Part shown: positions 32,278 to 47,300 of the stretch, piece by piece
Numbering within the stretch: position 1 is the stretch's first letter
How the letters are laid out: each line of letters begins with the position of its first letter
Source: Algiphilus sp.
GTDB lineage: Bacteria > Pseudomonadota > Gammaproteobacteria > Nevskiales > Nevskiaceae
Assembly: GCF_023145115.1 (NCBI RefSeq)
Contig: NZ_JAGLEJ010000002.1
Coordinates: 26,717-90,716 of the forward strand
Direction: 5' to 3'
DNA: 64,000 nt
Position numbers and translations under genes: made by a program
The notes under the pieces: generated by a model
The model's input: only the letters and a program-made list of their open reading frames with translations
What the model was told of the DNA's origin: nothing
Databases searched by the model: none

Positions 32278-32370
32278 GACGAGACGATACCCGTTCTCGG
32301 ACCCGGCGGCCGGACCGCGCCGCTGCACCGGTATGATGCGGGACCCGCGCCCGAGACCCGACACCGCTTC

Positions 32371-34134
32371 ATGTTCCAGCCCCGTGCCCGCCGTCCCGCG
32401 CCCGGCGCCCTGACCACGGTCAGCGGGCGCGAGGTCACCGGCTGGGTGATGGCCGGCGCTGCCGGCGAGCCGCTGACGGTCGTGCTGGAGATCGACGGCA
32501 TCGAGGTCGCGCGCACCGACGCCGACCTGCCGACCGAGGCGTACGATCGCGCCGCGACCGGCTTCCGCTTTGCGGCGGATACGCGCTTCACCGCGCTCGG
32601 TGGCAGTCGCTACGCCGCTGTTCGTGTGTTCGTCGAGCGTGACGGCGGCGGTCGCGACGAGCTCGCGCGCAGCCCGCAGGTTCTGGTGCTGCATCCCGAT
32701 GTCGAACGCGGCGGCGCAGCCTGCATCCTCACGGCGGGGCGGACGCGGGCAGTGTCGCTGGCGCACGACCTCCGCGCCGCTCACGGCGGTAGTGTCGCCG
32801 AGATGCATGGTGTGCGCGACGCCCTCGACCTTCCCGATGCCTTCCCGCGCGGATGCCGCTACGTGGTCGGCGATCTGCCGGCGATGACGGCCCGTCAGGC
32901 CGGGCTGGTCGACTACGCATGGGTGCTGCTGCTCGCGGATCCGGTCCGGCATCTGCGCGAGACGCTCGCCGAGCTGTGCGATGGCCGTGCGGCACCGCTG
33001 CGCGGCGGCGCCGAGGCGGATCGGGCCTGGCTCGACCGTCTGGCGGCGGTCGATACCGCCGACGCGCCGGCTTTGGCGGCCTGCCTCGCGGATGCGCCCG
33101 CGGCGATCCGCGCCCTGATCGACAACCCGCAGTGCCGCCTGTTGCTGCCGCCGCGGCAGGATCGCATCGGGCCGCGGCAGGGGGGCGCGGCGCAGCGTCA
33201 TCTGGGGTGGTTCGATGCGGTGGCGGTGGATGGCGATCCGGGGGCAGGGCGCAACCGGGTTGGGCGCCTGTACGGCATTCCGGAACCCGTCGGAGCGGGA
33301 ATGCCGGCGTCGGCGCCGACCGTTTTCGACAGCATTCCGGAATCGGTGCTCGCGCCCTTCGTCGAGCAGGACCGGGCCCTGATCGCGGCCGCCCGGTCGT
33401 GTCCGGAGCGCCCGCCGGGCGTGGCCTGGCGCGTGCGCAGCGGCCGCCGCGCGCTGGGCGCCGAACGCCTTGCCGCCGACCGCGGTGATGGCCGCGCGGC
33501 ACCCGATGCATCGCGCCGGCCCTTCGCCATCCTGCGCGCCCCCGAGCCGCGGGCGAAGCGCACGCTCGTGGTGCTGGGCGTTTCCCGCGGCGGCACCTCG
33601 ATGGTGGCAGGTACGCTCCGTCTGGCAGGGGTCTTCATGGGGCAGCGGCTGTCCAGCGACAGCCACGAGGACCGCGACTTCCACGTGCACGATCGTCGCA
33701 CCCTGCGCCGGCTGATCGCGGAGCGCAATGCGGCGCACGCCGTCTGGGGCTGGAAGTATCCGCACGCCTTCGACTACCTCGCGCGCATCCGCGGCAGCCT
33801 GCGCAATCCCCGCTTCATCGTCGTGTTCCGCGATGCGGTGGCGGTGGCCCAGGCCTTCAACCGCGCCGACGGCATGCCCTTCGACCGCGCGCTGCGCGAG
33901 GCCGAGGCGCGGTACCGGCGTCTGGCGCGCTTCGTCGCCCGCTGTCGCGATCCGGTGCTGGCGATCTCCTACGAGAAGGCACTCGCCGATCGCGAGGGTT
34001 ATCTGCTCGGGCTGGCCGACTTCTGCGGTCTGCATCCGAGCCCCGAGCAGTTCGATGCCTGCCGGGATTTCGTGTCTCCCGGCGATTATGTCCGCCTGCG
34101 CGGCGGCCCCGGCCGGGTGCGCCGCCAGCCCTGA
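32371..34134 (+). CDS. 587-aa bipartite protein: unknown N-terminal region plus C-terminal sulfotransferase domain
   Basis: In-frame ATG 32371 inside track ORF 31345..34134. C-terminal ~200 aa: RTLVVLGVSRGGTSMVAGTLRLAG (5'-PSB-like, closely resembling GMHRSGTS of the 1519-aa enzyme) ...RFIVVFRDAVAVAQAF. N-terminus contains VTGWVMAGAAGEPLTVVLEIDGIEVARTDADLP. Confidence 0.7.
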   Translation: MFQPRARRPAPGALTTVSGREVTGWVMAGAAGEPLTVVLEIDGIEVARTDADLPTEAYDRAATGFRFAADTRFTALGGSRYAAVRVFVERDGGGRDELARSPQVLVLHPDVERGGAACILTAGRTRAVSLAHDLRAAHGGSVAEMHGVRDALDLPDAFPRGCRYVVGDLPAMTARQAGLVDYAWVLLLADPVRHLRETLAELCDGRAAPLRGGAEADRAWLDRLAAVDTADAPALAACLADAPAAIRALIDNPQCRLLLPPRQDRIGPRQGGAAQRHLGWFDAVAVDGDPGAGRNRVGRLYGIPEPVGAGMPASAPTVFDSIPESVLAPFVEQDRALIAAARSCPERPPGVAWRVRSGRRALGAERLAADRGDGRAAPDASRRPFAILRAPEPRAKRTLVVLGVSRGGTSMVAGTLRLAGVFMGQRLSSDSHEDRDFHVHDRRTLRRLIAERNAAHAVWGWKYPHAFDYLARIRGSLRNPRFIVVFRDAVAVAQAFNRADGMPFDRALREAEARYRRLARFVARCRDPVLAISYEKALADREGYLLGLADFCGLHPSPEQFDACRDFVSPGDYVRLRGGPGRVRRQP

Positions 34135-34238
34135 GTTCCGGGCTGTTCGACCAAAGTCGGGGATGTTGGTGGCGCCGCGGGTTGCTAGATTGCGTCGGTC
34201 ATCGGTGCATTCATGACAACAAGCGAGGAGACACGCTC

Positions 34239-34505
34239 ATGTCGCAGGAAAGAAAAGATGCGGCCGTCGCCTACTGGCAGGCCAACCTCAGGTTGCTGAT
34301 ATCGCTGCTCGTCATCTGGTTCGTGGTGTCGTTCGGAGCCGGGATTCTGCTGGTCGAACCGCTCAACGCGATCCCGCTGGGTGGATACAAGCTCGGTTTC
34401 TGGTTCGCCCAGCAGGGCTCGATCTACACCTTCATCGTGCTGATCTTCGTGTATGCGTTCCGCATGAACCAGCTCGACCGCAAGTTCGACGTGCACGAGG
34501 AGTAG
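34239..34505 (+). CDS. DUF4212 small membrane protein (putative solute:sodium symporter small subunit)
   Basis: 88 aa; AGGAG 8 nt upstream. YWQANLRLLISLLVIWFVVSFGAGILLVEPLN...GFWFAQQGSIYTFIVLIFVYAFRMN is typical of the family that precedes VC_2705-type symporters. Confidence 0.85.
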   Translation: MSQERKDAAVAYWQANLRLLISLLVIWFVVSFGAGILLVEPLNAIPLGGYKLGFWFAQQGSIYTFIVLIFVYAFRMNQLDRKFDVHEE

Positions 34506-34511
34506 GCCGCC

Positions 34512-36290
34512 ATGGATACCCAGACCTGGATCTACCTGATGGTGGGCGGCACCTTCGCCCTCTACATCGGAATCGCGCTGTGGGCGCGCGCCGGCTCCAC
34601 CGGCGAGTACTACGTGGCGGGGCAGGGCATTCATCCCGTGCTCAACGGAATGGCGACCGCCGCCGACTGGATGAGCGCGGCCTCCTTCATCTCGATGGCC
34701 GGCCTCATCGCCTTCCTCGGCTACAGCGGCTCGGTCTATCTCATGGGGTGGACCGGCGGCTACGTGCTCATGGCCATGCTGCTGGCGCCGTACCTGCGCA
34801 AGTTCGGCAAGTTCACGGTGCCCGAGTTCATCGGGGACCGCTTCTACTCGCAGACCGCTCGCGTGGTCGCGGTGATCTGCCTCGTGGTCATGTCGCTGAC
34901 CTACGTGATCGGCCAGATGCGCGGTGCCGGCATCGCCTTCTCGCGCTTCCTCGAGGTCGACATCACCACCGGGCTGCTCATTGGCATGGGCGTGGTCTTC
35001 ACCTATGCGGTACTGGGCGGCATGAAGGGCATCACCTACACCCAGATCGCGCAGTACGTGGTGATGATCTTCGCGTACACGGTGCCGGCGGTGTTCATCT
35101 CCCTCCAGATCACCGGGGTCGCGCTGCCGCAGGTCGGTCTGGGCGGTACCGTGGCGGACGGAAGCTGGCTGCTGGAGAGGCTCGACGGACTGGTGACCGA
35201 TCTCGGTTTCGCGGCGTATACCGAGCCCGGAGGCATGAGCATGCTGAACATGTTCCTGCTGACCATGGCGCTGATGATCGGAACGGCGGGTCTGCCGCAC
35301 GTCATCATCCGCTTCTTCACCGTTCCCAGGGTGCGCGACGCCCGCAAGTCGGCGGGCTGGGCGCTGGTGTTCATCGCCATCCTCTACACCACGGCGCCGG
35401 CGGTGGGCGCCATGGCGATGTACAACCTGCTCAACACCGTGCAGCCCGGTGAGGTCGGTGCCGAGACCGGCAACCTGGTGGCCGAGGAGCGCCCGGAGTG
35501 GATGCGTACCTGGGAAGAGACCGGTCTGCTGGCCTTCGAGGACAAGAACGACGACGGTCGCATCCAGTACTACAACGCCAAGAACCCGGAGTTCGCCGAT
35601 GAAGCCGCTGCCTACGGCTGGGAGGGCAACGAGCTCGACGTGGATCGCGACATCATGGTGCTGGCCAATCCGGAGATCGCGAAGCTGCCGGGCTGGGTGA
35701 TCGCGCTGGTGGCGGCCGGCGGTCTGGCGGCGGCGCTGTCCACGGCGGCCGGCCTGTTGCTGGCCATATCGTCCGCGGTATCGCACGACCTGCTGAAGAG
35801 CATCATCGCCAAGGACATCACCGACAAGCAGGAGCTGCTGGCCGGGCGCATCAGCATGGGCGTGGCCATCCTGGTGGCCGGATACCTGGGATTGAATCCA
35901 CCGGGCTTCGCGGCCGAGGTGGTGGCGCTCGCCTTCGGCATCGCGGCGTCGTCGCTGTTCCCCGTGCTCATGCTCGGCATCTTCAGCCAGCGCATGAACA
36001 AGGAAGGCGCCATCGCCGGCATGCTCGCCGGTCTCGGCACGACGCTGGTCTACATCTTCCTCTACAAGGGCTGGTTCTTCTTCCCGGAGACCGCGATGCT
36101 GCCCGACACCGCGGAAGGGTGGATTCTCGGCATCCAGCCGCAGAGCTTCGGCGCCGTCGGCGCGGTGATCAACTTCATCGTCGCCATCGCCGTATCGCGC
36201 GTGACCGCACCGCCGCCGGTTCATATCCAGGAACTGGTCGAGCACGTGCGCATCCCGCGCGGGGCCGTGGGTGCGGCTGCCGCACACTGA
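34512..36290 (+). CDS. Sodium:solute symporter (SSS family, ActP/VC_2705-like)
   Basis: 592 aa polytopic protein. YYVAGQGIHPVLNGMATAADWMSAASFISMAGLIAF and GGMKGITYTQIAQY are SSS signatures. Paired with DUF4212. Confidence 0.9.
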   Translation: MDTQTWIYLMVGGTFALYIGIALWARAGSTGEYYVAGQGIHPVLNGMATAADWMSAASFISMAGLIAFLGYSGSVYLMGWTGGYVLMAMLLAPYLRKFGKFTVPEFIGDRFYSQTARVVAVICLVVMSLTYVIGQMRGAGIAFSRFLEVDITTGLLIGMGVVFTYAVLGGMKGITYTQIAQYVVMIFAYTVPAVFISLQITGVALPQVGLGGTVADGSWLLERLDGLVTDLGFAAYTEPGGMSMLNMFLLTMALMIGTAGLPHVIIRFFTVPRVRDARKSAGWALVFIAILYTTAPAVGAMAMYNLLNTVQPGEVGAETGNLVAEERPEWMRTWEETGLLAFEDKNDDGRIQYYNAKNPEFADEAAAYGWEGNELDVDRDIMVLANPEIAKLPGWVIALVAAGGLAAALSTAAGLLLAISSAVSHDLLKSIIAKDITDKQELLAGRISMGVAILVAGYLGLNPPGFAAEVVALAFGIAASSLFPVLMLGIFSQRMNKEGAIAGMLAGLGTTLVYIFLYKGWFFFPETAMLPDTAEGWILGIQPQSFGAVGAVINFIVAIAVSRVTAPPPVHIQELVEHVRIPRGAVGAAAAH

Positions 36291-36319: not shown

Positions 36320-36348
36320 GGCCCGCTCATCGAGCGGGCCTTTCTTTT
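36320..36348 (+). terminator. Probable rho-independent terminator after the symporter gene
   Basis: GGCCCGCTC-ATCGA-GCGGGCC followed by TTTCTTTT. Confidence 0.6.
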
Positions 36349-36463: not shown

Positions 36464-36487
36464 CCCTTCTCCCCGAGGGGAGAAGGG
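36464..36487. repeat. REP-like GC-rich palindrome in a convergent intergenic region
   Basis: cccttctcccc-ga-ggggagaaggg, followed by gcggggatgaggg. Resembles the palindromic intergenic repeat units common in proteobacterial genomes. Only one copy in this window. Confidence 0.3.
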
Positions 36488-36562: not shown

Positions 36563-37663
36563 CTACCGCTGTATCTGGTAGGCGATCGCCAGGTGCCGCT
36601 GGGCCTCGCGCGCCTCGCGCAGCGCGGCGCGCACCACCGCCCGGTCGAAGTCGGGCAGGGCGCGGGGGTCGATATGGTTGTCCATCGGCTCACCGTCGCG
36701 GGCGCACGCCATCTGCCGGTGCAGGCGATAGGTCTGCAGGGCGGCGAGGGCGCGCGTCCAGGATTCGGCCTGGCGCTGCTCGTGGGGTCGTCGCGCCCAC
36801 CCCAGCAGACGCTCGCTGCTGTTGGTGGCGCTCAGCCCGCGCGACAGCGCCAGTACGCGCGCAACGTCGGAGAACGGCGATACGCCGTGCAGCTTGACGT
36901 CGAAGCGGCGCTGACGTCCGACCAGCCGGGCAAGGGGCGATAGCGCGCCGAACAGGCCCACGGGCGGCCGGTTGCGCAGGGCATTCTCGCTCATCTGGCG
37001 CAGGAACAGCGGCTTCTCCGCGACATGCTCGGACAGCCAGTCGCGCAGCGCATCGACCATCCGCGTTTCGCCGTGCAGCGCGCGGAAATCGAAGAATATC
37101 GCACCGTGCAGCAGCGCTTCCGGGTCGCCGGTATCGACCCACTGGCCGAAGCGCTCGCGCCACTCCGCGGCGGTCAGGCACCAGCGCGGGTTGCCCGCCA
37201 TGATGTCACCGGGGCACAGCCGGAAGCCGCAGCGCGCGAGTGCCTGGTTGGTCTCGCGCGCGAAGCGCAGCAGACGGGCGCGGGCTTCCTCGATGTCCTC
37301 GGCCTCGAAGATAAGCGCGTTGTCCTGATCGGTGTGCAGTGTCTGTTCGAGACGGCCCTCGCTGCCCAGCGCCATCCAGCACCAGCGAATGCCGTCCAGA
37401 TCATGGCGTTGCGCGATCAGGCGCAGCAGTCGCTGCGTCATGACATCGTTGAGCTCGGCGACGATGCGGGTGAGATGCACCGCCGCCATGCCCTCGGCGA
37501 GCAGCGTGAAGCCGAGCTCGCGCGCATCGGCCGCCCGCGCCGCCACCACGCTGACCGCGGGGGCTTCGATGAAGGCGTCGGCGATCGCCTGCACGCGGTC
37601 GCGCGTGCCGCGATAGATCCGTACCGACTCGCCGGCGGGTGCCTCAGTAGCGGAGCCGTGCAT
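36563..37663 (-). CDS. DUF294-type putative nucleotidyltransferase (NTase plus substrate-binding domains; no cNMP/CBS N-terminus)
   Basis: WMALGSEGRLEQTLHTDQDNALIF is the GS...D.D polymerase-beta-type NTase motif of DUF294. The C-terminal helical region is consistent with DUF294_C. AGGAGA SD. 20-nt overlap with the upstream exonuclease gene. Confidence 0.8.
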   Translation of the reverse strand: MHGSATEAPAGESVRIYRGTRDRVQAIADAFIEAPAVSVVAARAADARELGFTLLAEGMAAVHLTRIVAELNDVMTQRLLRLIAQRHDLDGIRWCWMALGSEGRLEQTLHTDQDNALIFEAEDIEEARARLLRFARETNQALARCGFRLCPGDIMAGNPRWCLTAAEWRERFGQWVDTGDPEALLHGAIFFDFRALHGETRMVDALRDWLSEHVAEKPLFLRQMSENALRNRPPVGLFGALSPLARLVGRQRRFDVKLHGVSPFSDVARVLALSRGLSATNSSERLLGWARRPHEQRQAESWTRALAALQTYRLHRQMACARDGEPMDNHIDPRALPDFDRAVVRAALREAREAQRHLAIAYQIQR

Positions 37664-39737
37664 ACCAGGTCTCCTGCGACGCCGACAGCGCGTCGCCCAG
37701 GGTCTCTATGCCGCGCGACTCGAGAAGCGGGATGAGCCGCACGAAGATCTCGGCGGTGACGATGGCATCGCCCAGCGCGGTGTGCCGGCCCACGACCGAA
37801 ACGCCGACGCGTTCGGCGATGGCCTCCAGGGCGTGGCCCTCGCGTTCGGGGTAGAGCACGGCCGACAGCAGCAGGGTGTCCAGGACCGGCTGCCGGAAGG
37901 CGAGTCCGAAAGGCGCTCCCTGCCGGCTCAGGAAGCTGAGGTCGAAGGCGCCGTTGTGGGCCAGCAGCACCGTGTCCTCGCAGAAGTCCGCGAACCGGGG
38001 CAGCACCGTGTCGGCGGCGGGTGCATCGCGCAGCATGCTCGGCGTGATGCCGTGAATCTGCTGTGCGTTGGGCGCGATCGGCCGTCGGCTTGCGACGAAG
38101 GACTCGAATACCTCCTGACTCAGGATGCGGCCATTGACCACCCGGATGGCGCCGAGCGCGATGATCTCGTCCCCTGCCGCCGGTTCCAGGCCGGTGGTCT
38201 CGGTGTCGAAGGCGGTGCAGATGAGTTCGCGCAGCGGCCGCTCGCTGAGGTCACCGGCGGCGCGCGCGGTATCGAACAGGTTGAAGTCGTAGAACTCCGG
38301 GCGCGTGTCGCGGGCGTCACCCTCGCCGGCAGGCTGATGCTCCGGCGGTGTCGCCAGGGGCAGCAGCCAGCGCACCGATGCGTCCGCTCCGGGCCAGCTC
38401 TCGCCATCGTGGCGTCTGGCGACCTCGGCGAGCGAGTAGGGCAGGGCGCCGTCTCCGGCCTGCACGGGTTGTGCGGCCCAGTGCCGCCAGTGTTCCGGTG
38501 GCACCGGAGATCCGTCCCAGGCGAGATCGAGCGCGGCATGGCCTTGCTCGCCGCGGTGCAGATGGAGCCGGAAGCCGGCGCCGCCGAGGTCCGCCCGCAC
38601 GCGCCCGGCGACGAAGCGCACCGCCGCCGCCAGCGCGTAGCTGTCGGCGCGGATCCAGTCGCTGCGCTCGGCGACCGTCACCGGTACGTCGGCCTCGACG
38701 CCGCGCATCACGCGCCGCTGCACGACGGCGCAGAGCGTCTCGGCGGGAATCTCCTCCAGGGGCAGGCGCGCGCGCAGCGCCTCGCGGCGGACCCGCTGGT
38801 CCTGCTGCAGTGCGGCCTCCAGCGCCCCGCTCTCGGCGTCGAGCAGGGCCACGAAGCGGTCGCGCTCGGCGGCGCTCATGTCCGGGTAGTCGCGCAGCAA
38901 CTCGACGGCGGCGCGCACGCCGGTCAACCGCACCAGCGCCTCGCGCGCGCGGTCGCCGGACGTGGGGGTCCCGTCGACCGGCGCGCCGGCCACGTTCTCG
39001 GCCTCCGCGAGACTGAGGAAGAAGCCGTTGAGGTGGCCCTGCTGAAGCGGGCTGAAACGTGCCCGCAGAAAGCGGCCATCGCGCGTGCTGATGATGGCGG
39101 CGACGCTCGCGCGCTCGCCGTCGCGCGCGCGCTGATCGGCGAGCCGGTCGAGACAGTGCAGGATGATGCTGCGCCGGAACAGCGTGAACACCGAGCGTCC
39201 CAGGCCCACGAAGGCCGCCTGTTCGCCGCTGAGCAGTTCGCGGGCCGGCGGGTTGTAGAGCAGGATGCGACCGTCGTCGGCACAGACCAGCACCGGGTCG
39301 CGCATCTGCGCCAGCAGCGCCGCGAGCAGGTCGCGCTCATCGGCGAGCTGGTCGGTCGCCTCGCGGATCTGGTTCTCCACGGTGCCCATCCGGTACTGAT
39401 GATGCTCGGCCAGCGCATTCACCGCGCGCACCAGCTCGCGCGGCGCCTCGCGCGTGAGCCGGAAGGACGGGTTGGTCTCGCGGATGACGTCCAGCGCGTA
39501 CGCCACCCGCGGCACGGTGCCGATGTGGGGGCGCAGGAGCGCGGCAATGCCTGCGCAGGATGCGCCCACCGCAGCGAGTGCCAGTAGTGCCAGAAGCCCG
39601 GCGCGCGCATCGCCGGCGACGACAGCGCGCGTGGCAGGCGCCAGGGCCAGCCACGCCAGGACCGCGGATCCGGCGAGCATCGCGGTGCACCAGGCGCAGG
39701 CGAGCAGGACGGTGCGCTGCAGCGCGGAGAGGGTCAT
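37644..39737 (-). CDS. Membrane-anchored sensor (2 TM, HAMP-like, PAS-like) fused to a DEDDh 3'-5' exonuclease (DnaQ/epsilon-like) domain
   Basis: N-terminus MTLSALQRTVLLACAWCTAMLAGSAVLAWL...LLALLALAAVGASCAGIAALL (2 TM). DPVLVCADDGRILLYNPPARELL is PAS-like. C-terminus AFDTETTGLEP...IIALGAIRV...IHGITPSML...LLAHNGAFDLSFL...HTALGDAIVTAEIF carries the ExoI/II/III motifs. ATGA overlap with the upstream receiver gene. Confidence 0.8.
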   Translation of the reverse strand: MTLSALQRTVLLACAWCTAMLAGSAVLAWLALAPATRAVVAGDARAGLLALLALAAVGASCAGIAALLRPHIGTVPRVAYALDVIRETNPSFRLTREAPRELVRAVNALAEHHQYRMGTVENQIREATDQLADERDLLAALLAQMRDPVLVCADDGRILLYNPPARELLSGEQAAFVGLGRSVFTLFRRSIILHCLDRLADQRARDGERASVAAIISTRDGRFLRARFSPLQQGHLNGFFLSLAEAENVAGAPVDGTPTSGDRAREALVRLTGVRAAVELLRDYPDMSAAERDRFVALLDAESGALEAALQQDQRVRREALRARLPLEEIPAETLCAVVQRRVMRGVEADVPVTVAERSDWIRADSYALAAAVRFVAGRVRADLGGAGFRLHLHRGEQGHAALDLAWDGSPVPPEHWRHWAAQPVQAGDGALPYSLAEVARRHDGESWPGADASVRWLLPLATPPEHQPAGEGDARDTRPEFYDFNLFDTARAAGDLSERPLRELICTAFDTETTGLEPAAGDEIIALGAIRVVNGRILSQEVFESFVASRRPIAPNAQQIHGITPSMLRDAPAADTVLPRFADFCEDTVLLAHNGAFDLSFLSRQGAPFGLAFRQPVLDTLLLSAVLYPEREGHALEAIAERVGVSVVGRHTALGDAIVTAEIFVRLIPLLESRGIETLGDALSASQETWYARLRY

Positions 39738-40273
39738 TCCGCGACCAGCCGCGCTTCGACGCGGCGCAGGAGATTGCCGGTGGAGAACGGCTTGGTGACG
39801 TAGTCGTCCGCTCCCATCGCCAGACCCTTGCGCCGCTCGGCCTCGCCGTCCCGCGCGCTCAGCATGATGACCGGCATGCGCGCGGTGGCGGGATCCGCGC
39901 GCACGGCACGGCAGACCTGATGGCCGTCGGTGCCCGGCATGACGACATCCAGGATGACGAGATCGGGTGGGCGGGCGCGTATCGCCGCCAGCGCCGCGTC
40001 GCCGTCCGCGGCACACGCCACGTCGATGCCGTGACGGCCCAGCAGGAAGGCGAGGCATTCGCGGATGGCGGGTTCGTCGTCGACGACCAGGACGCGCTTG
40101 CCGTGCAGGGCGCCTTCGTCGGGCCGTGCACCGGCCTCGGGCTGCGGCGGGTCGGTGGATGGTGCAGCACTCACGGACCGGCGATTCTCGCTGACACGGG
40201 AAGCATCCAGTGTGCGGGCTCCTCGCCGCGAAGAACAGTGCCCGGCGCCGGGCCGGGCACTGTTCGGCGGCAT
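39734..40273 (-). CDS. Single-domain response regulator (CheY-like receiver); start uncertain
   Basis: KRVLVVDDEPAIRECLAFLLGRHGIDVACAADGDAALAAIRARPPDLVILDVVMPGTDGHQVCRAVR...VIMLSARDG...GADDYVTKPF. No ATG lies close to the domain; candidates are ATG 40273 and GTG 40174. Confidence 0.65.
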   Translation of the reverse strand: MPPNSARPGAGHCSSRRGARTLDASRVSENRRSVSAAPSTDPPQPEAGARPDEGALHGKRVLVVDDEPAIRECLAFLLGRHGIDVACAADGDAALAAIRARPPDLVILDVVMPGTDGHQVCRAVRADPATARMPVIMLSARDGEAERRKGLAMGADDYVTKPFSTGNLLRRVEARLVAE

Positions 40274-40283
40274 GTCATGCGCG

Positions 40284-41495
40284 TCAGAAGTCGTACCGCA
40301 CCGAGAACTGCAGGCGAGCGAGGCTGCCGTCCGCACCGGACTCCAGCTCGCGGTCCGAGTAGATCAGCTCGCCACCCACGGTCAGCTTCTCGACCGGCGT
40401 GTGCAGCAGGTTGAGATTGACGCTCTGCGCCTCCTTGGTCACGCCGTTGCCGCTGAAGGCGACGTCGTGATCGGCGCTGAAGTAGCCGTAGCTGAGATTC
40501 GAGCGCCAGCGCGGCGTCCAGATGTGCCGATAGGCGATGTAGCCGCCGAAGGCCTGGATGGTGTCGAGCTCGCCGGTGTCGTCGATGACCGCGGCGCGGG
40601 CGGTATTGAGGCCGAGGTAGCGCCCGATGCCGTCACCGAAGTTGGCCTGGAAGCGGATGTCGTCCCGTCCCAGCATCTTCTTGCCGGAGACATTGATGCC
40701 GTAGCCGATCTCCTTGTCGCCGCCGGGCGTGATGCCGTCGCCGTCGAGCTGGCGGACCAGCGCGCTGAAGCTGACCAGACTGCCGTCGCTGCGCGTGAAG
40801 CGCAGCTTGCCGACGAGGTCGGGCAGGTTCTCGTTGTCGTTGAAGCCGCCGCCACCGGTGTTCGCGTTCGGCAGCACCGTGGTCTCCGGGTTCTCCAGCG
40901 CGATCTGCAGCGGGCCGCGCGTGTAGCGCACCTGGGTCTGCCGGATGAAGGTCATGCCTTCGGAGGGGCCGATGAAGTCGAGCAGGTCCGGATAGGCACC
41001 CAGATCCATGAAGGTCGACCAGGTCTGGCCGAACAGCCAGCTGTTGCCGTTGGGGTCGTCCCAGGCCACGAAGGCATGCCGCATGCGCGGATTCGAGCTG
41101 TTGACCAGGCGCTCCTCGTTCGCGAGCGCGCCGTCGAATGCGGGGTCGAGAAAATCGACCTCGATGAAGGTCTTGATGCGGTGGCCGTTCTTGCTGGTGG
41201 TGGTGCCGATGTTGAAGCGCGATTCGCGCGCCGTGAAGTCGGTGGCGCCGTCGCGGTCGCTTCCGGCCGACTCGACCGGGATCAGGGCCGGGATGGTGAA
41301 GGCACGCCCGCGGTCCGCCGGGGCATTGCCGCCGGGCGCGTCCGAGTAGCTGGAGTAGACCGCGTCGAGCTTGATGTAGCCACCGAGCGAGAACTCGGTG
41401 TCGCCGAAGGTGGTGGATACCGCCGCGGCCGGACCCGCCGCGAGCAGACAGGTGGTCGCGATGGCGGCCGGAATGCCGGTGAGCTTGCTGTGCAT
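40284..41495 (-). CDS. Outer-membrane porin (beta-barrel, C-terminal Phe)
   Basis: AGAGGAGA SD before ATG 41495. Signal peptide MHSKLTGIPAAIATTCLLAAGPAAA. Alternating amphipathic strands. Terminal ...LARLQFSVRYDF. Confidence 0.75.
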   Translation of the reverse strand: MHSKLTGIPAAIATTCLLAAGPAAAVSTTFGDTEFSLGGYIKLDAVYSSYSDAPGGNAPADRGRAFTIPALIPVESAGSDRDGATDFTARESRFNIGTTTSKNGHRIKTFIEVDFLDPAFDGALANEERLVNSSNPRMRHAFVAWDDPNGNSWLFGQTWSTFMDLGAYPDLLDFIGPSEGMTFIRQTQVRYTRGPLQIALENPETTVLPNANTGGGGFNDNENLPDLVGKLRFTRSDGSLVSFSALVRQLDGDGITPGGDKEIGYGINVSGKKMLGRDDIRFQANFGDGIGRYLGLNTARAAVIDDTGELDTIQAFGGYIAYRHIWTPRWRSNLSYGYFSADHDVAFSGNGVTKEAQSVNLNLLHTPVEKLTVGGELIYSDRELESGADGSLARLQFSVRYDF

Positions 41496-41709
41496 GGCGT
41501 GTCTCCTCTTGTAGGTTTGCATCCAGCGCCGGCAGCATCGAATGCACAAAGAGGGTGCGTCCATTAGCCAAAGGTCGAACGCGCGGCCACGGCCCGTCAC
41601 GGCGCGCCCGTGCTCCCGCCGGTCGACCATGGTCGGATGGCCTGTCCCTGCCACAGCTTGTATAAAGGGGGCGCTGATACATACCGAGAAAGCAGAGGAG
41701 CCTCAGCCG

Positions 41710-43653
<1,944 letters not shown>

Positions 43654-43655
43654 GC

Positions 43656-44333
43656 ATGAGCACGGCGGCCGCCACGGTCATCGTCGCCGACGACCATCCG
43701 CTGTTCCGCGCCGCCCTGCGCGAGACGGTGGGACGGCTGCTGCCCGAAGCAGCGGTGGTCGAGGCGCAGGACATGGCCGCGCTGGAGTCGGCGGTGGATG
43801 CATGCCCGGAGGCCGATCTCGTGCTGCTCGATCTGCACATGCCGGGTGCGCACGGCTTCTCGTCGCTGGTCTTCCTGCGCGGTCATCATCCGAGCGTGCC
43901 GGTGATCGTGGTCTCCGCCGCCGAGGGCGCCGATGTCGTCCGGCGTGCCGCCGACTTCGGAGCGTCGGGCTTCATTCCGAAGTCCGCCAATCTGGAGGTC
44001 ATCGCCGAGGCCGTGGCAGCGGTGCGTGACGGCAATCTCTGGTTTCCCGAAAGCGACGACGAGGACAGCGACGGCGGGGACATCGAGCTCGCCGAGCGTC
44101 TCGCCAGCTTGACGCCGCAGCAGTTCCGCGTGCTGATGATGATCGCCGGCGGTCTGCTCAACAAGCAGATCGCCTACGAACTCGATGTCTCGGAGGCCAC
44201 CGTCAAGGCGCACGTCACCGCCATCCTGCGCAAGCTCGGTCTGTACAGTCGTACCCAGGCCGCGGTCATTGCCGAGCGGCTGCAGATCCATCCGCCGCGG
44301 GTCGCGGCCGACGCGCCGGCAGCATCCGGCTGA
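43656..44333 (+). CDS. crbR: NarL/FixJ(LuxR)-type response regulator, CrbR-like
   Basis: Receiver VIVADDHPLFRAAL...DLVLLDLHMPG...VIVVSA. LuxR HTH LTPQQFRVLMMIAGGLLNKQIAYELDVSEATVKAHVTAILRKLG. Adjacent to acs and to an SSS-domain hybrid kinase, the CrbS/CrbR arrangement described for acetate-switch control. Confidence 0.75.
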   Translation: MSTAAATVIVADDHPLFRAALRETVGRLLPEAAVVEAQDMAALESAVDACPEADLVLLDLHMPGAHGFSSLVFLRGHHPSVPVIVVSAAEGADVVRRAADFGASGFIPKSANLEVIAEAVAAVRDGNLWFPESDDEDSDGGDIELAERLASLTPQQFRVLMMIAGGLLNKQIAYELDVSEATVKAHVTAILRKLGLYSRTQAAVIAERLQIHPPRVAADAPAASG

Positions 44334-47300
44334 GCAGCGCCCGCAGGGCCGCCGGCTTGACCGGTTTGGCGAGGAAGCGCATCTCGACCTGCGTGGCGGC
44401 TTCGCGCGCGGCGGCCGAGTGGTCGGCGGTGACCAGCGCGGCGGGTGGCGCGCACTGCCAGTAGCGGCGCAGGCGCTCCATCACCGCATCACCGGTGGTG
44501 TCGTCCAGGTGATAGTCGATCAGCACGGCGTCGGGCGCCGTCGGGCACGCCGCAAGAGCCTGATCGCCGTCCGCGGCGGTGTGCACGCTGCATCCCCAGC
44601 GCGCGAGCAGGGCCGCCGTCGCGGCGAGCGTGTCGGGGTCGTTGTCGACGCACAGCACGGTCGCGCCCTGGAAATCGTGCGCGACCGTGCGTGGCCGCGA
44701 TGGGACATCGGGGATTGCGGCGGTGGCCGCGCGGTCGACGTGCACCCGGAATACCGAGCCGCTGCCCATGCGCGAGTCCAGCGACAGCTCGTGACCGAGC
44801 AGCCGCGCGATGCGTTCGCTGATCGCCAGGCCGAGGCCGAGCCCGCGCTCGGCATGGGGTTCGTGCGGATGCAGGCGGCGGAATTCCTCGAATATCTCGC
44901 GTCGCTTGTCCGCCGGGATGCCGGGACCGGTATCCCATACTTCGATGATCAGGGCGCCGCCCCGTCGGCGACATCCCAGCAGCACGCGGCCGCGACCGGT
45001 ATAGCGCAGGGCGTTGGTCAGCAGGTTCTGGATGATGCGCCGGAGCAGCACTTCATCGCTGCGGATCCAGGCCGAGCACGGAACGGTGCGCAGCACCAGG
45101 CCGCGCTCCTCGGCGATGGCGCGGCATTCCGTGGCCAGGGTGTCGAGCAGGGTCTGCACCGGAAAGGCGCGGATATCGGTCTTCTGGGCGCCGGCATCCA
45201 GTCGCGATATGTCGGAGAGGCCCTCCAGCAGCTGTTCCATGGCCGCCAGCGAGCGGCCGATGTTGCGGGCGGCGCCGCGCGTCTCGCCGTCCTCGGCCTG
45301 CTCCAGGGCGTGATTGAACAGGCGTGCGGCGTTGAGCGGCTGCGCCAGATCGTGCGTGGTCGCGGCCAGGAAACGGGTCTTGGAGAGGTTGGCGGCCTCG
45401 GCCTCCTGGCGGGCGCGGTGGGCATCCGCTTCCGCGTCCGTCAGCTCGCGGGTGCGGTCCGCAACCCGCTGCTCGAGCTCCTCGTTGACGCGCTGCAAGA
45501 TCGATTCGGCGCGCTTGTAGGCGGTAATGTCCGAGAAGGTACTGACGAAGCCGCCGCCCGGCATCGGGTTGCCGGCGATCTCGATGACCCGGCCGTCCGG
45601 CATGCGGCGCTCGTGGCGGTACGGCGTGCCGTGCTGGAGATGCGCGAGCCGGCGCTTCACGGCGGCGTCCTCCGGCGTGTCGCCGAGCAGGCCGCGCTCG
45701 GCATTGTGGCGCACCAGCTTCTCCACCGGCGTACCTTCGCGCAGCAGGTCGTCGGGATAGTCGAAGAGCTTGGCGTAGGCGTCGTTCCACGCGGTCAGGC
45801 GCAGGTCGCGGTCGACCACGCTCACGCCCTGGTCCATGTGATCCAGGGTGGCGTGGAGCAGATCGCGGTTGAAGCGCACCGCGCGCGAGGTCTGCTCGAT
45901 GATGTCGATGACCTCGCCGGTGCCGGGGTGGCGCAGGCGCTCGATGAGCACGCGGGCCGACGAAGCGCCCAGCGCGCTCGCCAGACAGCTTTCGCAGAAG
46001 CGGATGAACTCGGCGTCGGCACTGCCGCGCATGCGCCACGGTGCTTCGCGGCGCTCACCGTACTCGGCGATGAAGGCGCGTGTGCGCTCGGTGCCGAAGA
46101 AGCGCTCCAGCAGCACCACCAGATCGCTGATGCTGATGCTGCCGCTGCGCGCGCCGCTCGATTCGGGCTCGCGCAGCCCCATCAGGCGCGCGGTATGGGC
46201 CTGCTCGGTCAGTGTCGGTGCACCGAACAGCGAGCCGATGACCAGCAGCGCCACGTGCACCGCCAGGCTCCACGCGCTGCCGCTGACGATGATGTCCTGG
46301 GCCACCACTTCGGTGGCCGTGGCAGGGATCGTGGACGGCAGCAGCGTGGTCACGATCCAGACGGACATGCCGCCCACCAGTCCCGCGACGGCGCCGTTGC
46401 GGTTGGCGCGCGGCCAGAGCACGCCCGCTACCACCGGAGGAGCGAGGTGGGCGATGGCGCTGAAGCTGAGCAGGCCGATGAGGGCCAGCGGCAGCTGGGT
46501 CAGCATCAGGCGGTCGATGAGCCATGCGGCGAGCAGCAGCGCCACGATGGTCAGGCGTCGCGTGCGCAGCAGCAGGGCACCCAGGTTCTGCTCGGCGCGC
46601 TGGTAGCCGCGGCCGCGCAGCATCGCGGGCAGGATCAGCTCGTTGCTGAGCATGGTCGCGAGTGCCACGCAGGACACGATCACCATGCCGGTGGCGGCCG
46701 AGAATCCCCCCAGGAAGGCCAGCAACGCAATCGCCGGCGCGTCGCCCGCCTGCGGCAGCGCGAGCACGAAGCGGTCCGCATCCACGTCGCCGAGCGCGAC
46801 GCCCGCCGCCGCCAGCGGCAGGACGAAGCCGGCGAACACCAGCAGGTAGAGCGGGAACAGCCAGCGTGCCCGGCGCACTTCGCGCTCGCCGGTGTTCTCC
46901 ACGACCATGAGGTGGAACTGCCGCGGCAGCACGATCACCGCCGCCCCGGCCAGCACCGTCTGTACCCAGAACGGCGGTGCCGTGAACTGGGCGATGTCGA
47001 CCGCGCTCAGCGCCGAGACCGCCTCCACGCTGCCGCCGATGCCGCCCAGGCGCCAGACGGCGAAGATGCCCACGGTGATGAAGGCGAGCAGCTTCAGCAG
47101 CGACTCGACCGCGACCGCCAGCACCATGCCGTGGTGGCTCTCGGTGCTGGCGATGTGGCGCGTGCCGAACAGCATCGCGAACACCGCCAGCAGGATGGTG
47201 ATCAGGGTGACGCCGTGCAGACCGTCGCCCATGGTGCCGCCGTCACTGGCCAGCACCTCGAAGCCCAGCGAGATCCCGCGCAGCTGCAGCGCGAGGTAGG

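Follow-up and report, generated by a model that had tools for sequence, protein, structure and literature searches.

A membrane-anchored exonuclease, a nucleotidyltransferase (NTase), a receiver protein and a porin are encoded side by side in Algiphilus sp., divergently from an acetyl-CoA synthetase gene. What such a set of proteins does together is the question raised by this locus. The genes lie on the minus strand of the window, by which we mean the whole 64,000-nucleotide stretch analysed here. All four ORFs were confirmed: a DcaP-type porin, a single-domain receiver (REC), a sensor-exonuclease and a DUF294 NTase.

Gene cluster and genomic neighbourhood

The first gene of the cluster (40284-41495, minus strand) encodes a 403-aa outer-membrane porin of the DcaP family (Pfam PF19577, E = 2.8e-15); AGAGGAGA is found 5' of its ATG start codon. 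Its DNA is 78% identical to that of the porin of A. aromaticivorans (L081). A porin heads the cluster only in the Algiphilus clade (L081, L082, L084 and L085) and in none of 50 more distant loci. REC (Pfam Response_reg, E = 5e-30) occupies 39734-40174 (GTG start) or 39734-40273 (ATG start) on the minus strand. It is followed by a sensor pseudokinase-DEDDh exonuclease of 697 aa (37644-39737, minus strand; Pfam, family profile, AF2 and Foldseek) and a short-form DUF294 NTase of 366 aa (36563-37663, minus strand; PF03445, 1e-46; PF10335, DUF294_C, 5e-30). The REC stop and exonuclease start share an ATGA, and the exonuclease and NTase reading frames overlap by 20 nt; overlaps of 20-23 nt are found again in relatives L081, L082, L084 and L087. 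The four packed genes and their overlaps, described in an earlier sequence-only reading, were confirmed, and the translational coupling is real.

The acetyl-CoA synthetase gene acs (41710-43653, plus strand; ORF and start codon) is divergent from the porin gene; its orthologues in L081 and L088 have ACAS_N, AMP-binding and AMP-binding_C domains. Next to it is a crbR/erdR-type gene for a LuxR-family response regulator (43656-44333, plus strand; Response_reg and GerE by Pfam), which matches NCBIfam NF041830 RR_TF_ErdR at E = 1e-77, under the curated cut-off. A CrbS/MxtR-type hybrid kinase gene (44266-47685, minus strand; NF041832 above its cut-off) encodes a multi-TM SLC5-like N-terminus, PAS_7, HisKA, HATPase_c and REC domains; CrbS is the sole SLC5-type kinase remaining near the module in the window. 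On the other side, a DUF4212 small subunit (34239-34505, plus strand; PF13937, TIGR03647) and a VC_2705-family Na+/solute symporter (SSS; 34512-36290, plus strand; TIGR03648, E = 1.6e-254) form a pair (34239-36290, plus strand) convergent with the NTase gene. Algiphilus relatives have porin, 65-aa ORF, histidine kinase, REC, exonuclease and short NTase, adjoining acs-crbR-crbS. The cluster is part of a CrbS/CrbR acetate-utilisation island.

Promoter region and regulon

The acs/porin divergent region contains an ACTU-like palindrome, TCGACCATGGTCGG (Box A, 41623-41636), at a distance of 74 nt from the ATG of acs and 128 nt from that of the porin gene. Published CrbR ACTU sites, such as TACGACTAAAGTCTAAA, resemble Box A (PMC5715377). 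Its GAC-N4-GTCG core is kept in L082 and L085; L081 has CAC instead of GAC. Box B, TTCGACCTTTGGCTAATGGACGC (41557-41579, minus strand), lies 62 nt upstream of the porin ATG and is the best-conserved intergenic island, being nearly invariant in the window, L081, L082 and L085 in an alignment (A4) where mean column identity of the intergenic region is 61%. Another ACTU-like palindrome, TCGACCAAAGTCGG (34147-34160), is located upstream of the DUF4212-SSS pair. It should be noted that the ACTU-like matches are short: two exact matches and one with a single mismatch were found against 0.64 expected, and 4 of 100 shuffles reach three.

The targets of CrbS/R (MxtR/ErdR) include PP_0354/PP_0353, Pflu5625 and PA3232-35. 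Since the cluster adjoins acs, crbR and crbS and has ACTU-like boxes, it can be considered a sensor-fused variant of the PP_0354/PP_0353 pair. Both that Pseudomonas pair (also Pflu5625 and PA3233/PA3232) and the window cluster combine a DUF294 and DUF294_C NTase with a DEDDh-type exonuclease, have acs, actP/SSS-type symporters and crbS/crbR as neighbours, and have ACTU-type boxes nearby. Differences arise in the proteins themselves. PP_0354/PP_0353 comprises a cNMP-CBS-DUF294 NTase and a small RNase_T-type exonuclease, whereas the window NTase lacks cNMP and CBS domains and the 697-aa exonuclease has a 2TM-HAMP-PAS-pseudokinase N-terminus and a dedicated REC ahead of it. Relatives of the window cluster also have an SLC5 kinase, and in the window the exonuclease gene precedes the NTase gene, the two reading frames overlapping. 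Linkage of DUF294/exonuclease pairs to acs and DUF4212/SSS genes, which the earlier reading had pointed to, is borne out by the locus survey and by published work (PMC9927547, PMC5715377, PMC9765439). In P. putida, loss of the classical pair by deletion has only mild effects, seen on propionate and pyruvate but not on acetate. The role of PP_0353/PP_0354 is still described as unclear in a September 2026 preprint on bioRxiv (10.64898/2026.09.07.749794), in agreement with the earlier statement that no biochemical function is established.

Loss of the sensor kinase

Between porin and REC, 187 nt (40097-40283, minus strand) stand where relatives have about 3.0 kb with a 65-aa membrane ORF and a gene for a histidine kinase that is fused to SLC5 and about 895 aa long. 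In blastn, window 41579-40283 corresponds to L081 5341-6645 and window 40096-39601 to L081 9645-10143. On this alignment the porin-REC junction is a deletion scar and not the ancestral junction; the tight packing claimed for the whole cluster holds for the downstream overlaps but not here. The genome has lost the family's dedicated SLC5-type sensor kinase, and the L081 SLC5-kinase matches only CrbS in the window (41%, residues 14-636). The kinase-less junction is also present in five further assembled contigs (L088-L092) from several samples.

Translation of REC from GTG 40174 gives 146 aa, and from ATG 40273 it gives 179 aa; gene callers chose the 146-aa form in L088-L092. Its native N-terminus and start were lost through the deletion, and neither candidate start has an obvious ribosome-binding site. 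REC is 55% identical to its L081 counterpart, and its phosphorylation residues are all present: the acidic pair, the phospho-acceptor D (LDVVMPG), S (MLSA) and K (TKPF).

Because the kinase is gone and the native REC start is lost, the module may be silent or decaying in the window genome. REC, exonuclease and NTase would then be a non-functional remnant, which we regard as possible but rather unlikely. The replacement of about 3 kb by 187 nt, the state of the REC start and a weak hairpin (40240-40253) within the scar, after the porin stop, all fit a remnant. However, the three ORFs are intact, their catalytic, phospho-acceptor and family-invariant residues are all kept, and the gene overlaps are preserved; the same arrangement recurs in the five further contigs, and the paralogous SLC5 kinase CrbS is 4.5 kb away. 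A remnant in this genome is compatible with any function of the intact family.

Family distribution and the full module

The sensor-fused exonuclease had been thought unusual; instead, at 50% identity the family (E <= 1e-10) falls into 541 clusters, and nearly all of its 150 best matches are about 700-730 aa long. REC is encoded directly upstream in 67 of 75 loci, with an SLC5-fused CrbS-like kinase upstream of REC in 56 of 69; in its transporter-like domain, this partner kinase shares 37-41% identity with CrbS. The NTase is present in 39 of 50 loci, and about 20% of loci have none within +/-10 kb. The full module consists of a small membrane ORF, an SLC5-fused histidine kinase, REC, a pseudokinase-exonuclease and a GlnE-like DUF294 NTase.

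Sensor half of the exonuclease protein

Two hydrophobic stretches, roughly residues 9-33 and 44-68, are joined by a minimal outer loop some 10 residues long and make up a two-TM hairpin at residues 5-72 (39522-39725, minus strand; Kyte-Doolittle peaks; AF2 helices 5-30 and 46-72). A HAMP-like region and signalling helix follow at residues 74-144 (39306-39518, minus strand), assigned by the family profile through its matches to the HAMP region of NpHtrII (E = 1e-4) and the N-terminal region of VicK. The PAS domain (residues 145-245; 39003-39305, minus strand) is a profile match with an AF2 beta-sheet at 149-245; the family profile matches the WalK PAS (4mn5) at E = 4.8e-8, and the motifs G156-x-ILLYN162 and G178-L-G-R-S182 are family-invariant. 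Pfam finds HAMP in 4 and PAS in 36 of 55 family members. The HAMP and PAS domains suggested earlier are thus supported at family-profile level, but in the window protein searched alone Pfam gives no HAMP match and PAS_4 (E = 2.8e-4) falls below the cut-off.

Beyond the PAS domain is a DHp-like helical hairpin (residues 258-324; 38766-38966, minus strand), with R265 where the phospho-acceptor His is expected. The His of VicK SHELRTPL aligns with the family's E in the profile alignment; in 55 family members this H-box column holds E 37, D 6, T 4, R 2, N 2 and others 3 times, and His in none. The CA-like (HATPase_c fold) domain (residues 328-462; 38352-38756, minus strand) is matched through the family profile to VicK 4i5s, ThkA 3a0r, DivL 4q20 and HK853. 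Its G1 Asp is replaced by W407 (49 of 55 family members), the N-box Asn has no counterpart, and the GxGLGL motif (G2) is missing as well. Over its length the family profile matches VicK 4i5s at 1e-22 (positions 53-486), ThkA at 3e-15 and DivL 4q20 at 1e-8, and the top Foldseek matches are WalK, VicK and YF1 for the sensor region and PolC and epsilon for the exonuclease domain. A single-sequence search against PDB kinases gave no match. The sensor region of about 480 aa is a complete WalK/VicK-type histidine-kinase core, with TM, HAMP, PAS, DHp and CA in the same order. It differs from WalK/VicK in its C-terminal exonuclease fusion and in lacking the phospho-acceptor His and the N, G1 and G2 boxes, and is therefore a pseudokinase. 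The phosphorelay control proposed earlier must be recast: with a His-less, ATP-box-less kinase core, it is probably REC docking onto the pseudokinase.

The pseudo-DHp is about 30% identical to the partner SLC5-kinase DHp (pairwise BLASTP, E = 1e-7 to 2e-5) and 15% to that of CrbS; one of four exonuclease N-terminal queries gave any match to CrbS (E = 0.46). No lineage-specific co-variation was detected between pseudo-DHp and partner-kinase DHp (same-genome 0.301, cross-genome 0.307, permutation p = 0.97), so the similarity may reflect common ancestry alone. A linker motif, R479-P-E-F-Y-D-F-x-L487 (38277-38303, minus strand), stands just before the exonuclease domain; its columns are invariant in family alignments A1 and A2.

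Exonuclease domain

Residues 506-697 (37647-38222, minus strand) form an epsilon/PolC-type DEDDh 3'-5' exonuclease domain (Pfam RNase_T, residues 509-665, E = 2e-35), and the protein scores above the cut-off of TIGR00573 dnaq. The DEDDh catalytic set is intact: D511, E513, D599 and H594 are invariant in the family, while conservation of H652 and D657 is 90% or higher. The public annotation of the protein is 'DNA polymerase III subunit epsilon'.

In sequence the domain most resembles exonucleases of the DNA proofreading type (PolC, epsilon and DinG), with PDB matches to PolC exonuclease 2p1j (2.6e-48) and epsilon 1j53 (3.6e-26) and structural matches at rmsd 1.7-2.3 A. Such best matches, in sequence and in structure, and the annotation could point to a role on DNA (repair, proofreading modulation or extracellular-DNA scavenging) with functionally unrelated neighbours. 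This is very unlikely: synteny with REC, SLC5-kinase, NTase, acs and SSS genes is conserved, the protein is membrane-anchored, and no pol III alpha-binding C-terminal extension follows the exonuclease domain.

DUF294 nucleotidyltransferase

The NTase has DUF294 and DUF294_C domains; no cNMP or CBS domain was found by Pfam. The earlier DEDDh exonuclease, two-TM and short DUF294 NTase assignments were all right (Pfam, AF2, Kyte-Doolittle). So was the suggestion that sensing had moved to the exonuclease partner: the NTase adjoining a sensor-exonuclease is short or CBS-only, and where the cNMP+CBS form is found it is encoded by a second gene, as in Azonexus L041. There, a 220-aa ORF after the long NTase has no Pfam match and a BLAST match at just E = 0.015.

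G100, S101, D112, D114 and D192 are invariant, and the catalytic carboxylates are intact. No sequence-level PDB match was obtained. In the AF2 model (pLDDT 91), the only PDB fold matches at E <= 1e-3 are the protein AMPylators GlnE (1v4a and 3k7d) and DrrA (6yx5). The model superposes on both GlnE domains and DrrA (TM 0.56-0.64) at a sequence identity of 11-14%, and shares the G-S-x-G-R-x-E...D-x-D catalytic motif with GlnE, GlnD and DrrA. It also has a helical C-terminal substrate-binding domain of the GlnE/GlnD clan, DUF294_C being placed with the GlnD/GlnE C-terminal domains (PMC3710099). No CD-NTase, cGAS or GGDEF-type fold is among the model's matches. A fold match restricted to GlnE and DrrA speaks for nucleotidylylation of a target rather than for production of a nucleotide signal; of the two functions offered in the sequence-only reading, the former gains and the latter loses ground.

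A second-messenger module, in which the NTase makes a linear or cyclic (oligo)nucleotide that the membrane sensor-exonuclease degrades, is accordingly considered unlikely. It would explain a pair of enzymes with opposing chemistry under sensor control, and the cNMP-binding domains carried by long-form NTases. TM, PAS, degenerate signalling domain and phosphodiesterase-type output also parallel GdpP, which has TM, PAS, degenerate GGDEF and DHH phosphodiesterase; Orn, a DEDDh enzyme, degrades dinucleotides (pGpG). Against it are the AMPylator-only fold, the absence of any PADLOC or CD-NTase match for the NTase, and an exonuclease domain nearest PolC/epsilon (E = 1e-48 to 1e-26), RNase T matching at just 8e-6.

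Nucleic-acid 3'-end editing is similarly improbable. Here the NTase would extend the 3' end of an RNA or DNA without a template and the exonuclease would trim the added nucleotides, as in a CCA-adding enzyme/RNase T cycle, so as to tune a tRNA, sRNA or mRNA while cells grow on short-chain acids. Pol-beta NTases do include RNA-tailing enzymes, and the catalytic residues of the exonuclease domain are complete, making it a genuine DEDDh nuclease; RNase-T-like roles for PP_0353 have also been raised (10.64898/2026.09.07.749794). However, poly(A), CCA and TENT enzymes are all absent from the significant matches of the NTase model, a two-TM anchor would be out of the ordinary in RNA maturation, no conserved RNA gene was noticed in the vicinity, and no tRNA lies within the window.

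Proposed mechanism and comparison with known systems

The best model as a whole, to which we give a probability of about 50%, is that a pseudokinase-exonuclease gated by phosphorylated REC (REC~P) reverses protein nucleotidylylation by the NTase. The SLC5 kinase would sense carboxylate availability or transport and phosphorylate REC. REC~P would dock on the His-less DHp in DivL/DivK-style 'reverse' signalling and turn the exonuclease domain on or off, while PAS and HAMP may integrate a further cue. The NTase would nucleotidylylate a protein in short-chain-acid metabolism, with Acs or a transporter as candidates. The exonuclease would remove the NMP by hydrolysing the Tyr/Ser-O-P-5'-nucleoside phosphodiester, the same chemistry as release of a 3'-terminal 5'-NMP. 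In the window genome, REC would be fed by cross-talk alone, most plausibly from CrbS, and transcription is probably from the porin promoter with its CrbR-type boxes.

NMP removal is carried out by a second NTase domain in GlnE, by an HD domain in GlnD and by the PP2C-like SidD in the case of Legionella DrrA/SidM. To our knowledge, none of these systems uses a DEDDh exonuclease for removal, and we know of no DEDDh exonuclease with protein de-nucleotidylylase activity.

For a pseudokinase that reads a phosphorylated response regulator, the precedent is DivL of Caulobacter crescentus (PMC4211667). DivL likewise has a DHp-CA core without phospho-acceptor His and a single-domain REC partner (DivK), and its kinase core is reused as a receptor; for the window cluster such reuse is proposed. 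DivL has Tyr at the His position, whereas the sensor-exonuclease family has Glu/Asp, and Arg in the window protein. DivL controls the kinase CckA; the output of the window pseudokinase is a covalently fused exonuclease, and its ATP-binding boxes are also gone.

The family's partner kinase is SLC5-fused, as in CrbS/CrbR and the SLC5/STAC 'transceptor' systems (CbrA/B, RpuS/R), and shares with CrbS/CrbR the context of acetate and monocarboxylate utilisation. Unlike CrbS, it is non-hybrid, about 895-920 aa long and without REC; it is preceded by the 65-aa two-TM ORF (absent from the window together with the kinase) and, in place of a DNA-binding regulator, a stand-alone REC and a pseudokinase fused to an enzyme come after it. 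The window cluster is the kinase-less local version of a signalling module that is both conserved and widespread, and its sensor-fused exonuclease architecture is not rare.

Gene content and surroundings of the module

The window has a G+C content of about 69%. An ORF scan finds four genes on the minus strand at 36563-41495. The first encodes a DcaP-family porin (40284-41495, 403 aa, with AGAGGAGA before the ATG), and the second a receiver (REC) made up of a Response_reg domain alone (39734-40174 from a GTG start or 39734-40273 from an ATG), both assigned with Pfam and NCBIfam. The third encodes a 697-aa sensor-exonuclease (37644-39737) with an RNase_T domain of the DEDDh class at residues 509-665 and weak PAS matches at 137-242. 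The fourth encodes a 366-aa nucleotidyltransferase (NTase; 36563-37663), in which Pfam finds DUF294 and DUF294_C only; as had been proposed, it does not have the cNMP or CBS N-terminus. The stop of the receiver gene and the start of the 697-aa gene share an ATGA, and the sensor-exonuclease and NTase genes overlap by 20 nt.

The acs gene starts at 41710 on the plus strand, divergent from the module. Immediately beyond are the genes for an ErdR/CrbR-like LuxR regulator (crbR; 43656-44333, plus strand, 3' of acs) and a CrbS/MxtR-type hybrid kinase (crbS; 44266-47685, minus strand). On the other side, a DUF4212 gene and a VC_2705-family symporter (SSS) gene (34239-36290) are convergent with the NTase gene. 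The ORF, overlap, domain and neighbour results thus agree with the sequence-only reading of the locus as a four-gene set with ATGA and 20-nt overlaps, these domains and a divergent acs.

Several smaller features surround the module. The convergent crbR (plus) and crbS (minus) genes overlap at their 3' ends by 68 nt (44266-44333), and an identical 68-nt convergent overlap is found in A. aromaticivorans (locus L081, 2587-2654). The 272-nt spacer of the convergent SSS and NTase genes contains a perfect GC-rich hairpin, CCCTTCTCCCC-GA-GGGGAGAAGGG (36464-36487), downstream of a canonical terminator-like hairpin (36320-36340). It occurs once in the window and may terminate transcription in both directions or be REP-like. 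Beyond the module, A. aromaticivorans has glycosyltransferase, polysaccharide-export, ABC transporter and sulfotransferase genes (L081 13179-21170). In the window, the DUF4212-SSS pair separates the module from an 890-aa ORF (31363-34035, minus strand); a link to polysaccharides seems likely on this side of the module too, as a putative assignment for the window.

A dead histidine-kinase core fused to an exonuclease

A homologue search with the sensor-exonuclease returns 73 or more full-length relatives, each about 700 aa long and 31-69% identical; the closest named ones are from Algiphilus (57-65%). Conservation runs along the whole length of a 55-sequence alignment. When each of these 55 members is scanned with Pfam, RNase_T is found in all of them, PAS_4 in 36, HisKA and HAMP in four each, and HATPase_c in one. 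The kinase core is visible only with family profiles; when the N-terminal 490 aa are searched against PDB as a single sequence, nothing matches, kinases included. The family profile matches VicK (4i5s, E = 1e-22, profile positions 53-486), ThkA (3a0r, E = 3e-15), DivL (4q20, E = 1e-8), and HK853 over the DHp and CA domains.

The individual domains differ in how readily they are detected. In the window protein PAS_4 scores 21.5 bits (E = 2.8e-4) against a cut-off of 23.1, and the best values among relatives are E = 4.6e-8 for PAS_4 and 4.1e-9 for the PAS model. The PAS assignment is based on the 36 of 55 relatives with a match, on a family-profile match to the WalK PAS domain (4mn5, E = 4.8e-8) and on a five-strand sheet in the AlphaFold model. 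The window protein by itself has no Pfam HAMP match. Its HAMP assignment draws on the family profile, which matches the HAMP region of the sensory-rhodopsin transducer NpHtrII (E = 1e-4) and the N-terminal region of VicK, on the four relatives with a Pfam match, and on modelled helices at residues 74-87 and from 100 onward. A DHp hairpin followed by a CA alpha/beta domain is found with the family profile, in the secondary structure of the model and with Foldseek.

The AlphaFold model (pLDDT 85.5) begins with two hydrophobic helices joined by a loop of about 10 residues, and a long helix then leads to the PAS sheet. A helical hairpin and an alpha/beta domain come next, with a disordered linker between them and the C-terminal exonuclease. 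The best Foldseek matches of the N-terminal part are WalK, VicK and the YF1 kinase. Profile matches, model and Foldseek together indicate a full kinase core in the N-terminal 480 residues, with two TM helices, a HAMP-like region, PAS, DHp and CA in that order. The earlier proposal of a sensor region of about 480 aa therefore holds for the two TM helices and for PAS by profile, and HAMP is putative (family-profile match, and a Pfam match in 4/55 relatives), but the region is not HAMP and PAS alone, as DHp and CA are also present.

The residues needed for kinase activity are missing. The column aligned with the phospho-acceptor histidine of VicK (SHELRTPL) contains E in 37 sequences, D in six, T in four, R in two, N in two, and A, Q and L in one each; histidine is found in 0/55, and the window protein has R265. 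The ATP-binding boxes are likewise absent: at the N-box Asn position the 55 sequences have G, A, T, R or S, the Asp position of G1 (DxGxG) is a tryptophan (W407) in 49/55, and the G2 region (GxGLGL) reads a-l-P-L-T, with no glycines. Judged on these columns, the kinase core is catalytically dead. An invariant motif, RPEFYDFxL, lies directly before the exonuclease domain. We hold this anatomy and the family assignment with high confidence.

The exonuclease domain has the residues of the DEDDh (DnaQ/epsilon-like) class and an RNase-H-like fold. RNase_T matches with E = 2e-35, and TIGR00573 scores above its cut-off. The catalytic set, D511/E513 (FDTETTG), D599 (AFD) and H652...D657 (HTALGD), is invariant or at least 90% conserved in the 55 sequences, which indicates a live site. 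Foldseek matches the C-terminal part to PolC, epsilon and DinG, and superposition of the model on PolC and epsilon gives an rmsd of 1.7-2.3 A. Members of the family are annotated merely as 'exonuclease' or 'DNA polymerase III epsilon', and one rival explanation, an unlikely one, is that they are DNA-repair exonucleases.

A GlnE/DrrA-like nucleotidyltransferase

The NTase has both DUF294 domains above their cut-offs (PF03445, 158.7 bits; PF10335, 104.7 bits) and a Pol-beta NTase motif, G100-S101...D112-x-D114, with D192 as the third carboxylate. All five residues are invariant in 41 NTase sequences. There is no sequence-level match in PDB. The AlphaFold model (pLDDT 91) has only four Foldseek matches in PDB at E <= 1e-3: the two domains of GlnE (three chains; 1v4a, 3k7d) and the Legionella Rab AMPylase DrrA (6yx5), with E = 1e-6 to 2e-5 and TM 0.56-0.64. 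Aminoglycoside NTases come next, at E > 0.05. The fold is that of the GlnE/GlnD/DrrA type, an NTase with a helical substrate-binding domain; DUF294_C has been grouped with the C-terminal domains of GlnD and GlnE by Anantharaman et al. (PMC3710099). Model and conserved residues point clearly to a GlnE/DrrA-like fold with a live catalytic site.

The GlnE and DrrA matches suit protein nucleotidylylation; two rival explanations assign the pair other substrates. In one, NTase and exonuclease deal with a nucleotide second messenger, following GdpP-like logic; in the other, they tail and trim 3' ends. No CD-NTase, poly(A), CCA or GGDEF enzymes are among the Foldseek PDB matches of the NTase model. 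A role in anti-phage defence (CBASS-like) was considered and rejected: PADLOC gives no match to the NTase and no defence-system signature, its matches at the locus are limited to the generic DEDDh domain, and the neighbouring genes are metabolic. A full-text literature search for DUF294 found no biochemical study.

Among the matches listed for homologues of either protein there are no NTase-exonuclease fusions. In a low-quality metagenomic protein of 915 aa (P0073), a sensor-exonuclease homologue has an in-frame receiver at its N-terminus, and the C-terminus appears frameshifted. This could be a genuine Rosetta-stone fusion, or else an artefact of assembly or of a frameshift.

A conserved family with a receiver and an SLC5-fused kinase

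The sequence-only reading regarded the fusion of a sensor to an exonuclease of this type as unusual. This is not so: the N-terminal 490 residues alone match 541 clusters at E <= 1e-10 among 1.84 billion representative proteins, and nearly all of the best 150 clusters are 700-730 aa long. The number of clusters and their uniform length describe a large, conserved family.

Gene neighbourhoods were counted by tblastn with the proteins of the window at the best 80 loci of a species-level genome collection; this set left out the Algiphilus relatives, which were recovered separately by exact-protein look-ups. A single-domain receiver lies directly upstream of the exonuclease at 67 of the 75 loci with enough flank, and a kinase of about 900 aa lies upstream of the receiver at 56 of 69. 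Over its N-terminal 600 residues this kinase shares 37-40% identity with the SLC5-like domain of CrbS. The DUF294 NTase is present at 39/50 loci, either directly downstream of the exonuclease or directly upstream of the kinase. The previously suggested linkage of DUF294/exonuclease pairs to acs and SSS-type genes is also seen here, with acs at 18/50 loci and VC_2705-type symporter genes at 17/50. SLC5 transceptor kinases are already known; they include CrbS, CbrA and RpuS.

The NTase that adjoins the sensor-exonuclease is short (355-366 aa) or CBS-only (about 480 aa); the cNMP+CBS form is a second gene, further downstream, in Rhodocyclaceae. In Azonexus hydrophilus (L041), acs comes first, before an SLC5-kinase of 904 aa that has no REC domain and a REC of 122 aa; after these are the sensor-exonuclease, the long cNMP-CBS-DUF294 NTase, an ORF of 220 aa and finally SSS. 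The 220-aa ORF (14010-14672) is where a PP_0353-type exonuclease, the small enzyme of the Pseudomonas pair, would be expected. It has no Pfam match, a marginal BLAST match to the exonuclease domain (E = 0.015), and VLDIVTDG at the FDTETTG position of DEDDh enzymes. The genome also has the sensor-fused exonuclease, and the ORF may encode a degenerate one; at this E value and with no Pfam match, the comparison does not show orthology of the small and fused exonucleases. In some genomes a second SLC5-type kinase adjoins the module, for example in L084 (1-2517, divergent from the porin) and L038 (1214-3532, CrbS-like, besides the module kinase); several paralogous transceptor kinases thus cluster around the module genes.

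The dead core resembles the kinase it is encoded with. In pairwise BLASTP, exonuclease N-termini match the DHp/CA region of partner SLC5-kinases with E = 1e-7 to 2e-5, whereas only one of four queries gives any match to CrbS, with E = 0.46. In an alignment of 51 DHp columns the dead core is about 30% identical to partner kinases, against 15% for CrbS. A test for co-variation of pseudo-DHp and partner-kinase DHp in 66 genomes shows no same-genome excess (identity 0.301 vs 0.307 across genomes, permutation p = 0.97), so that the similarity is family-wide, with no sign of recent co-evolution or co-evolving specificity. The likeness could come from common origin, from a shared conserved REC partner, or from both. 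A His-less core encoded with a single-domain receiver (67/75 loci; by an ATGA overlap in the window) recalls DivL, a pseudokinase which binds DivK~P (PMC4211667). DivL reads the phosphorylation state of its regulator, and the same is proposed for the pseudokinase of the sensor-exonuclease. The co-variation test, a proxy for docking of REC on the pseudokinase, was negative; we rate such docking as about an even bet.

Loss of the partner kinase in the window

In the closest relatives (L081, L082, L084, L085, L086) the porin is followed by a small two-TM ORF (65 aa), an SLC5-kinase (about 895 aa), a REC of 122-129 aa, the exonuclease and the short NTase; acs, crbR and crbS are divergent on the other side in L081 and L082, as in the window. 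By blastn, window 41579-40283 is 78% identical to L081 5341-6645, and 40096-39601 is 67% identical to 9645-10143. Between these segments, 187 unrelated nt in the window take the place of about 3.0 kb of L081 that hold the small ORF, the kinase and the first REC codons. CrbS is the sole match of the L081 kinase in the window (41%). The kinase-less junction recurs in five further contigs (one NCBI assembly and four Logan run assemblies) and is therefore not an assembly artefact. The absence of the kinase is a loss, because it is present in most distant loci; the window locus is a derived, kinase-less form of the module.

Another rival explanation is that a module without its kinase is a decaying remnant. 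REC, exonuclease and NTase are intact in the window and keep all key residues. The further assemblies differ by only 5-6 SNPs in 5 kb and were all chosen for an identical exonuclease protein, and are therefore uninformative on selection after the deletion.

The small two-TM ORF of 65-67 aa (L081 6743-6940, L082 6738-6935, L084 6751-6948, L085 2003-2206) has no Pfam match. It always precedes the SLC5-fused kinase and ends at or within a few nt of the kinase start codon. This mirrors the small DUF4212 and large SSS subunits of VC_2705-type symporters, and suggests that the sensor domain of the kinase derives from a two-subunit transporter. In the Algiphilus-like genome of L082, IS/transposase genes (rve) lie between porin and small ORF (5473-6630) and directly after the NTase (13577-14664); such mobile elements may be relevant to the kinase loss in the lineage of the window.

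Link to the acetate switch

The CrbS/R regulon of Pseudomonas fluorescens includes the DUF294 protein Pflu5625, whose gene is preceded by an ACTU inverted repeat (PMC5715377). In P. putida, pp_0354-pp_0353 is an operon and ErdR binds the pp_0354 promoter; deletion leaves growth on acetate and succinate unaffected and affects growth on propionate and pyruvate moderately, and the function was called unclear as of September 2026 (PMC9927547; bioRxiv 10.64898/2026.09.07.749794). In P. aeruginosa, propionate induces PA3232-PA3235 by a factor of about 16 (PMC9765439).

The acs/porin spacer contains two candidate sites. The palindrome TCGACCATGGTCGG (box A, 41623-41636) precedes acs by 74 nt and is separated from the porin ATG by 128 nt. 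It resembles published ACTU sites, with which it has a GAC-N4-GTC core in common; the motif is short and the sites were defined in Pseudomonas. The core is kept in the same spacer of L082 and L085, and L081 has CAC for GAC. Box B, TTCGACCTTTGGCTAATGGACGC (41557-41579), is imperfect, lies 62 nt upstream of the porin ATG, and is the best-conserved part of the spacer. The sequence TCGACCAnnGTCGG has two exact copies in the window, one in this spacer and one upstream of DUF4212-SSS. Three ACTU-like matches, including one with a mismatch, are a modest excess over an expectation of 0.64; as many are found in 4 of 100 shuffles. A sigma-70 promoter scan gave no sites. The ACTU-like box A, together with box B, makes CrbR control of the porin-led transcript plausible.

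Proposed mechanism and significance

Neither the enzyme pair nor its link to the acetate switch is new, and pseudokinases that read phosphorylation are also known (DivL). Literature searches found no description of a dead kinase core fused to a DEDDh exonuclease, no account of the receiver and SLC5-kinase partners of the fusion, and no GlnE-like fold assignment of the NTase partner.

In the mechanism proposed here, the SLC5 kinase would sense carboxylate availability and phosphorylate REC; REC~P would bind the His-less DHp, as DivK~P does with DivL, and switch the exonuclease. The NTase would nucleotidylylate a protein and the exonuclease would take the NMP off. Hydrolysis of protein-O-P-5'-nucleoside to 5'-NMP would be chemically the same as exonuclease action, except that the leaving group is a protein hydroxyl. 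In the genome of the window, input would come via cross-talk alone, with CrbS as the obvious candidate. That the NTase writes and the exonuclease erases is a tentative proposal, with the odds clearly against it. In the full reading, a DEDDh 'proofreading-type' exonuclease would be the first of its kind known to erase protein nucleotidylylation, opposing a GlnE-like DUF294 writer and gated by a fused pseudokinase which reads a REC charged by the SLC5 kinase, in a post-translational acetate/short-chain-acid branch parallel to CrbR transcription. We give it a probability of roughly 0.22.

Few genes depend as strongly on the CrbS/R (MxtR/ErdR) acetate switch as those of the PP_0353/PP_0354 type, which have been the subject of several targeted studies; the switch acts on carbon metabolism and host interaction in Vibrio and Pseudomonas. 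The sensor-fused family offers testable handles: its input is defined (the SLC5 kinase via REC), the His-less DHp is predicted as the docking surface, the fold predicts GlnE/DrrA-like protein NMPylation, and nature provides a kinase-less variant to compare. If the writer/eraser model is true, the family would represent a new class of de-nucleotidylylase and a new type of enzymatic output for two-component signalling.
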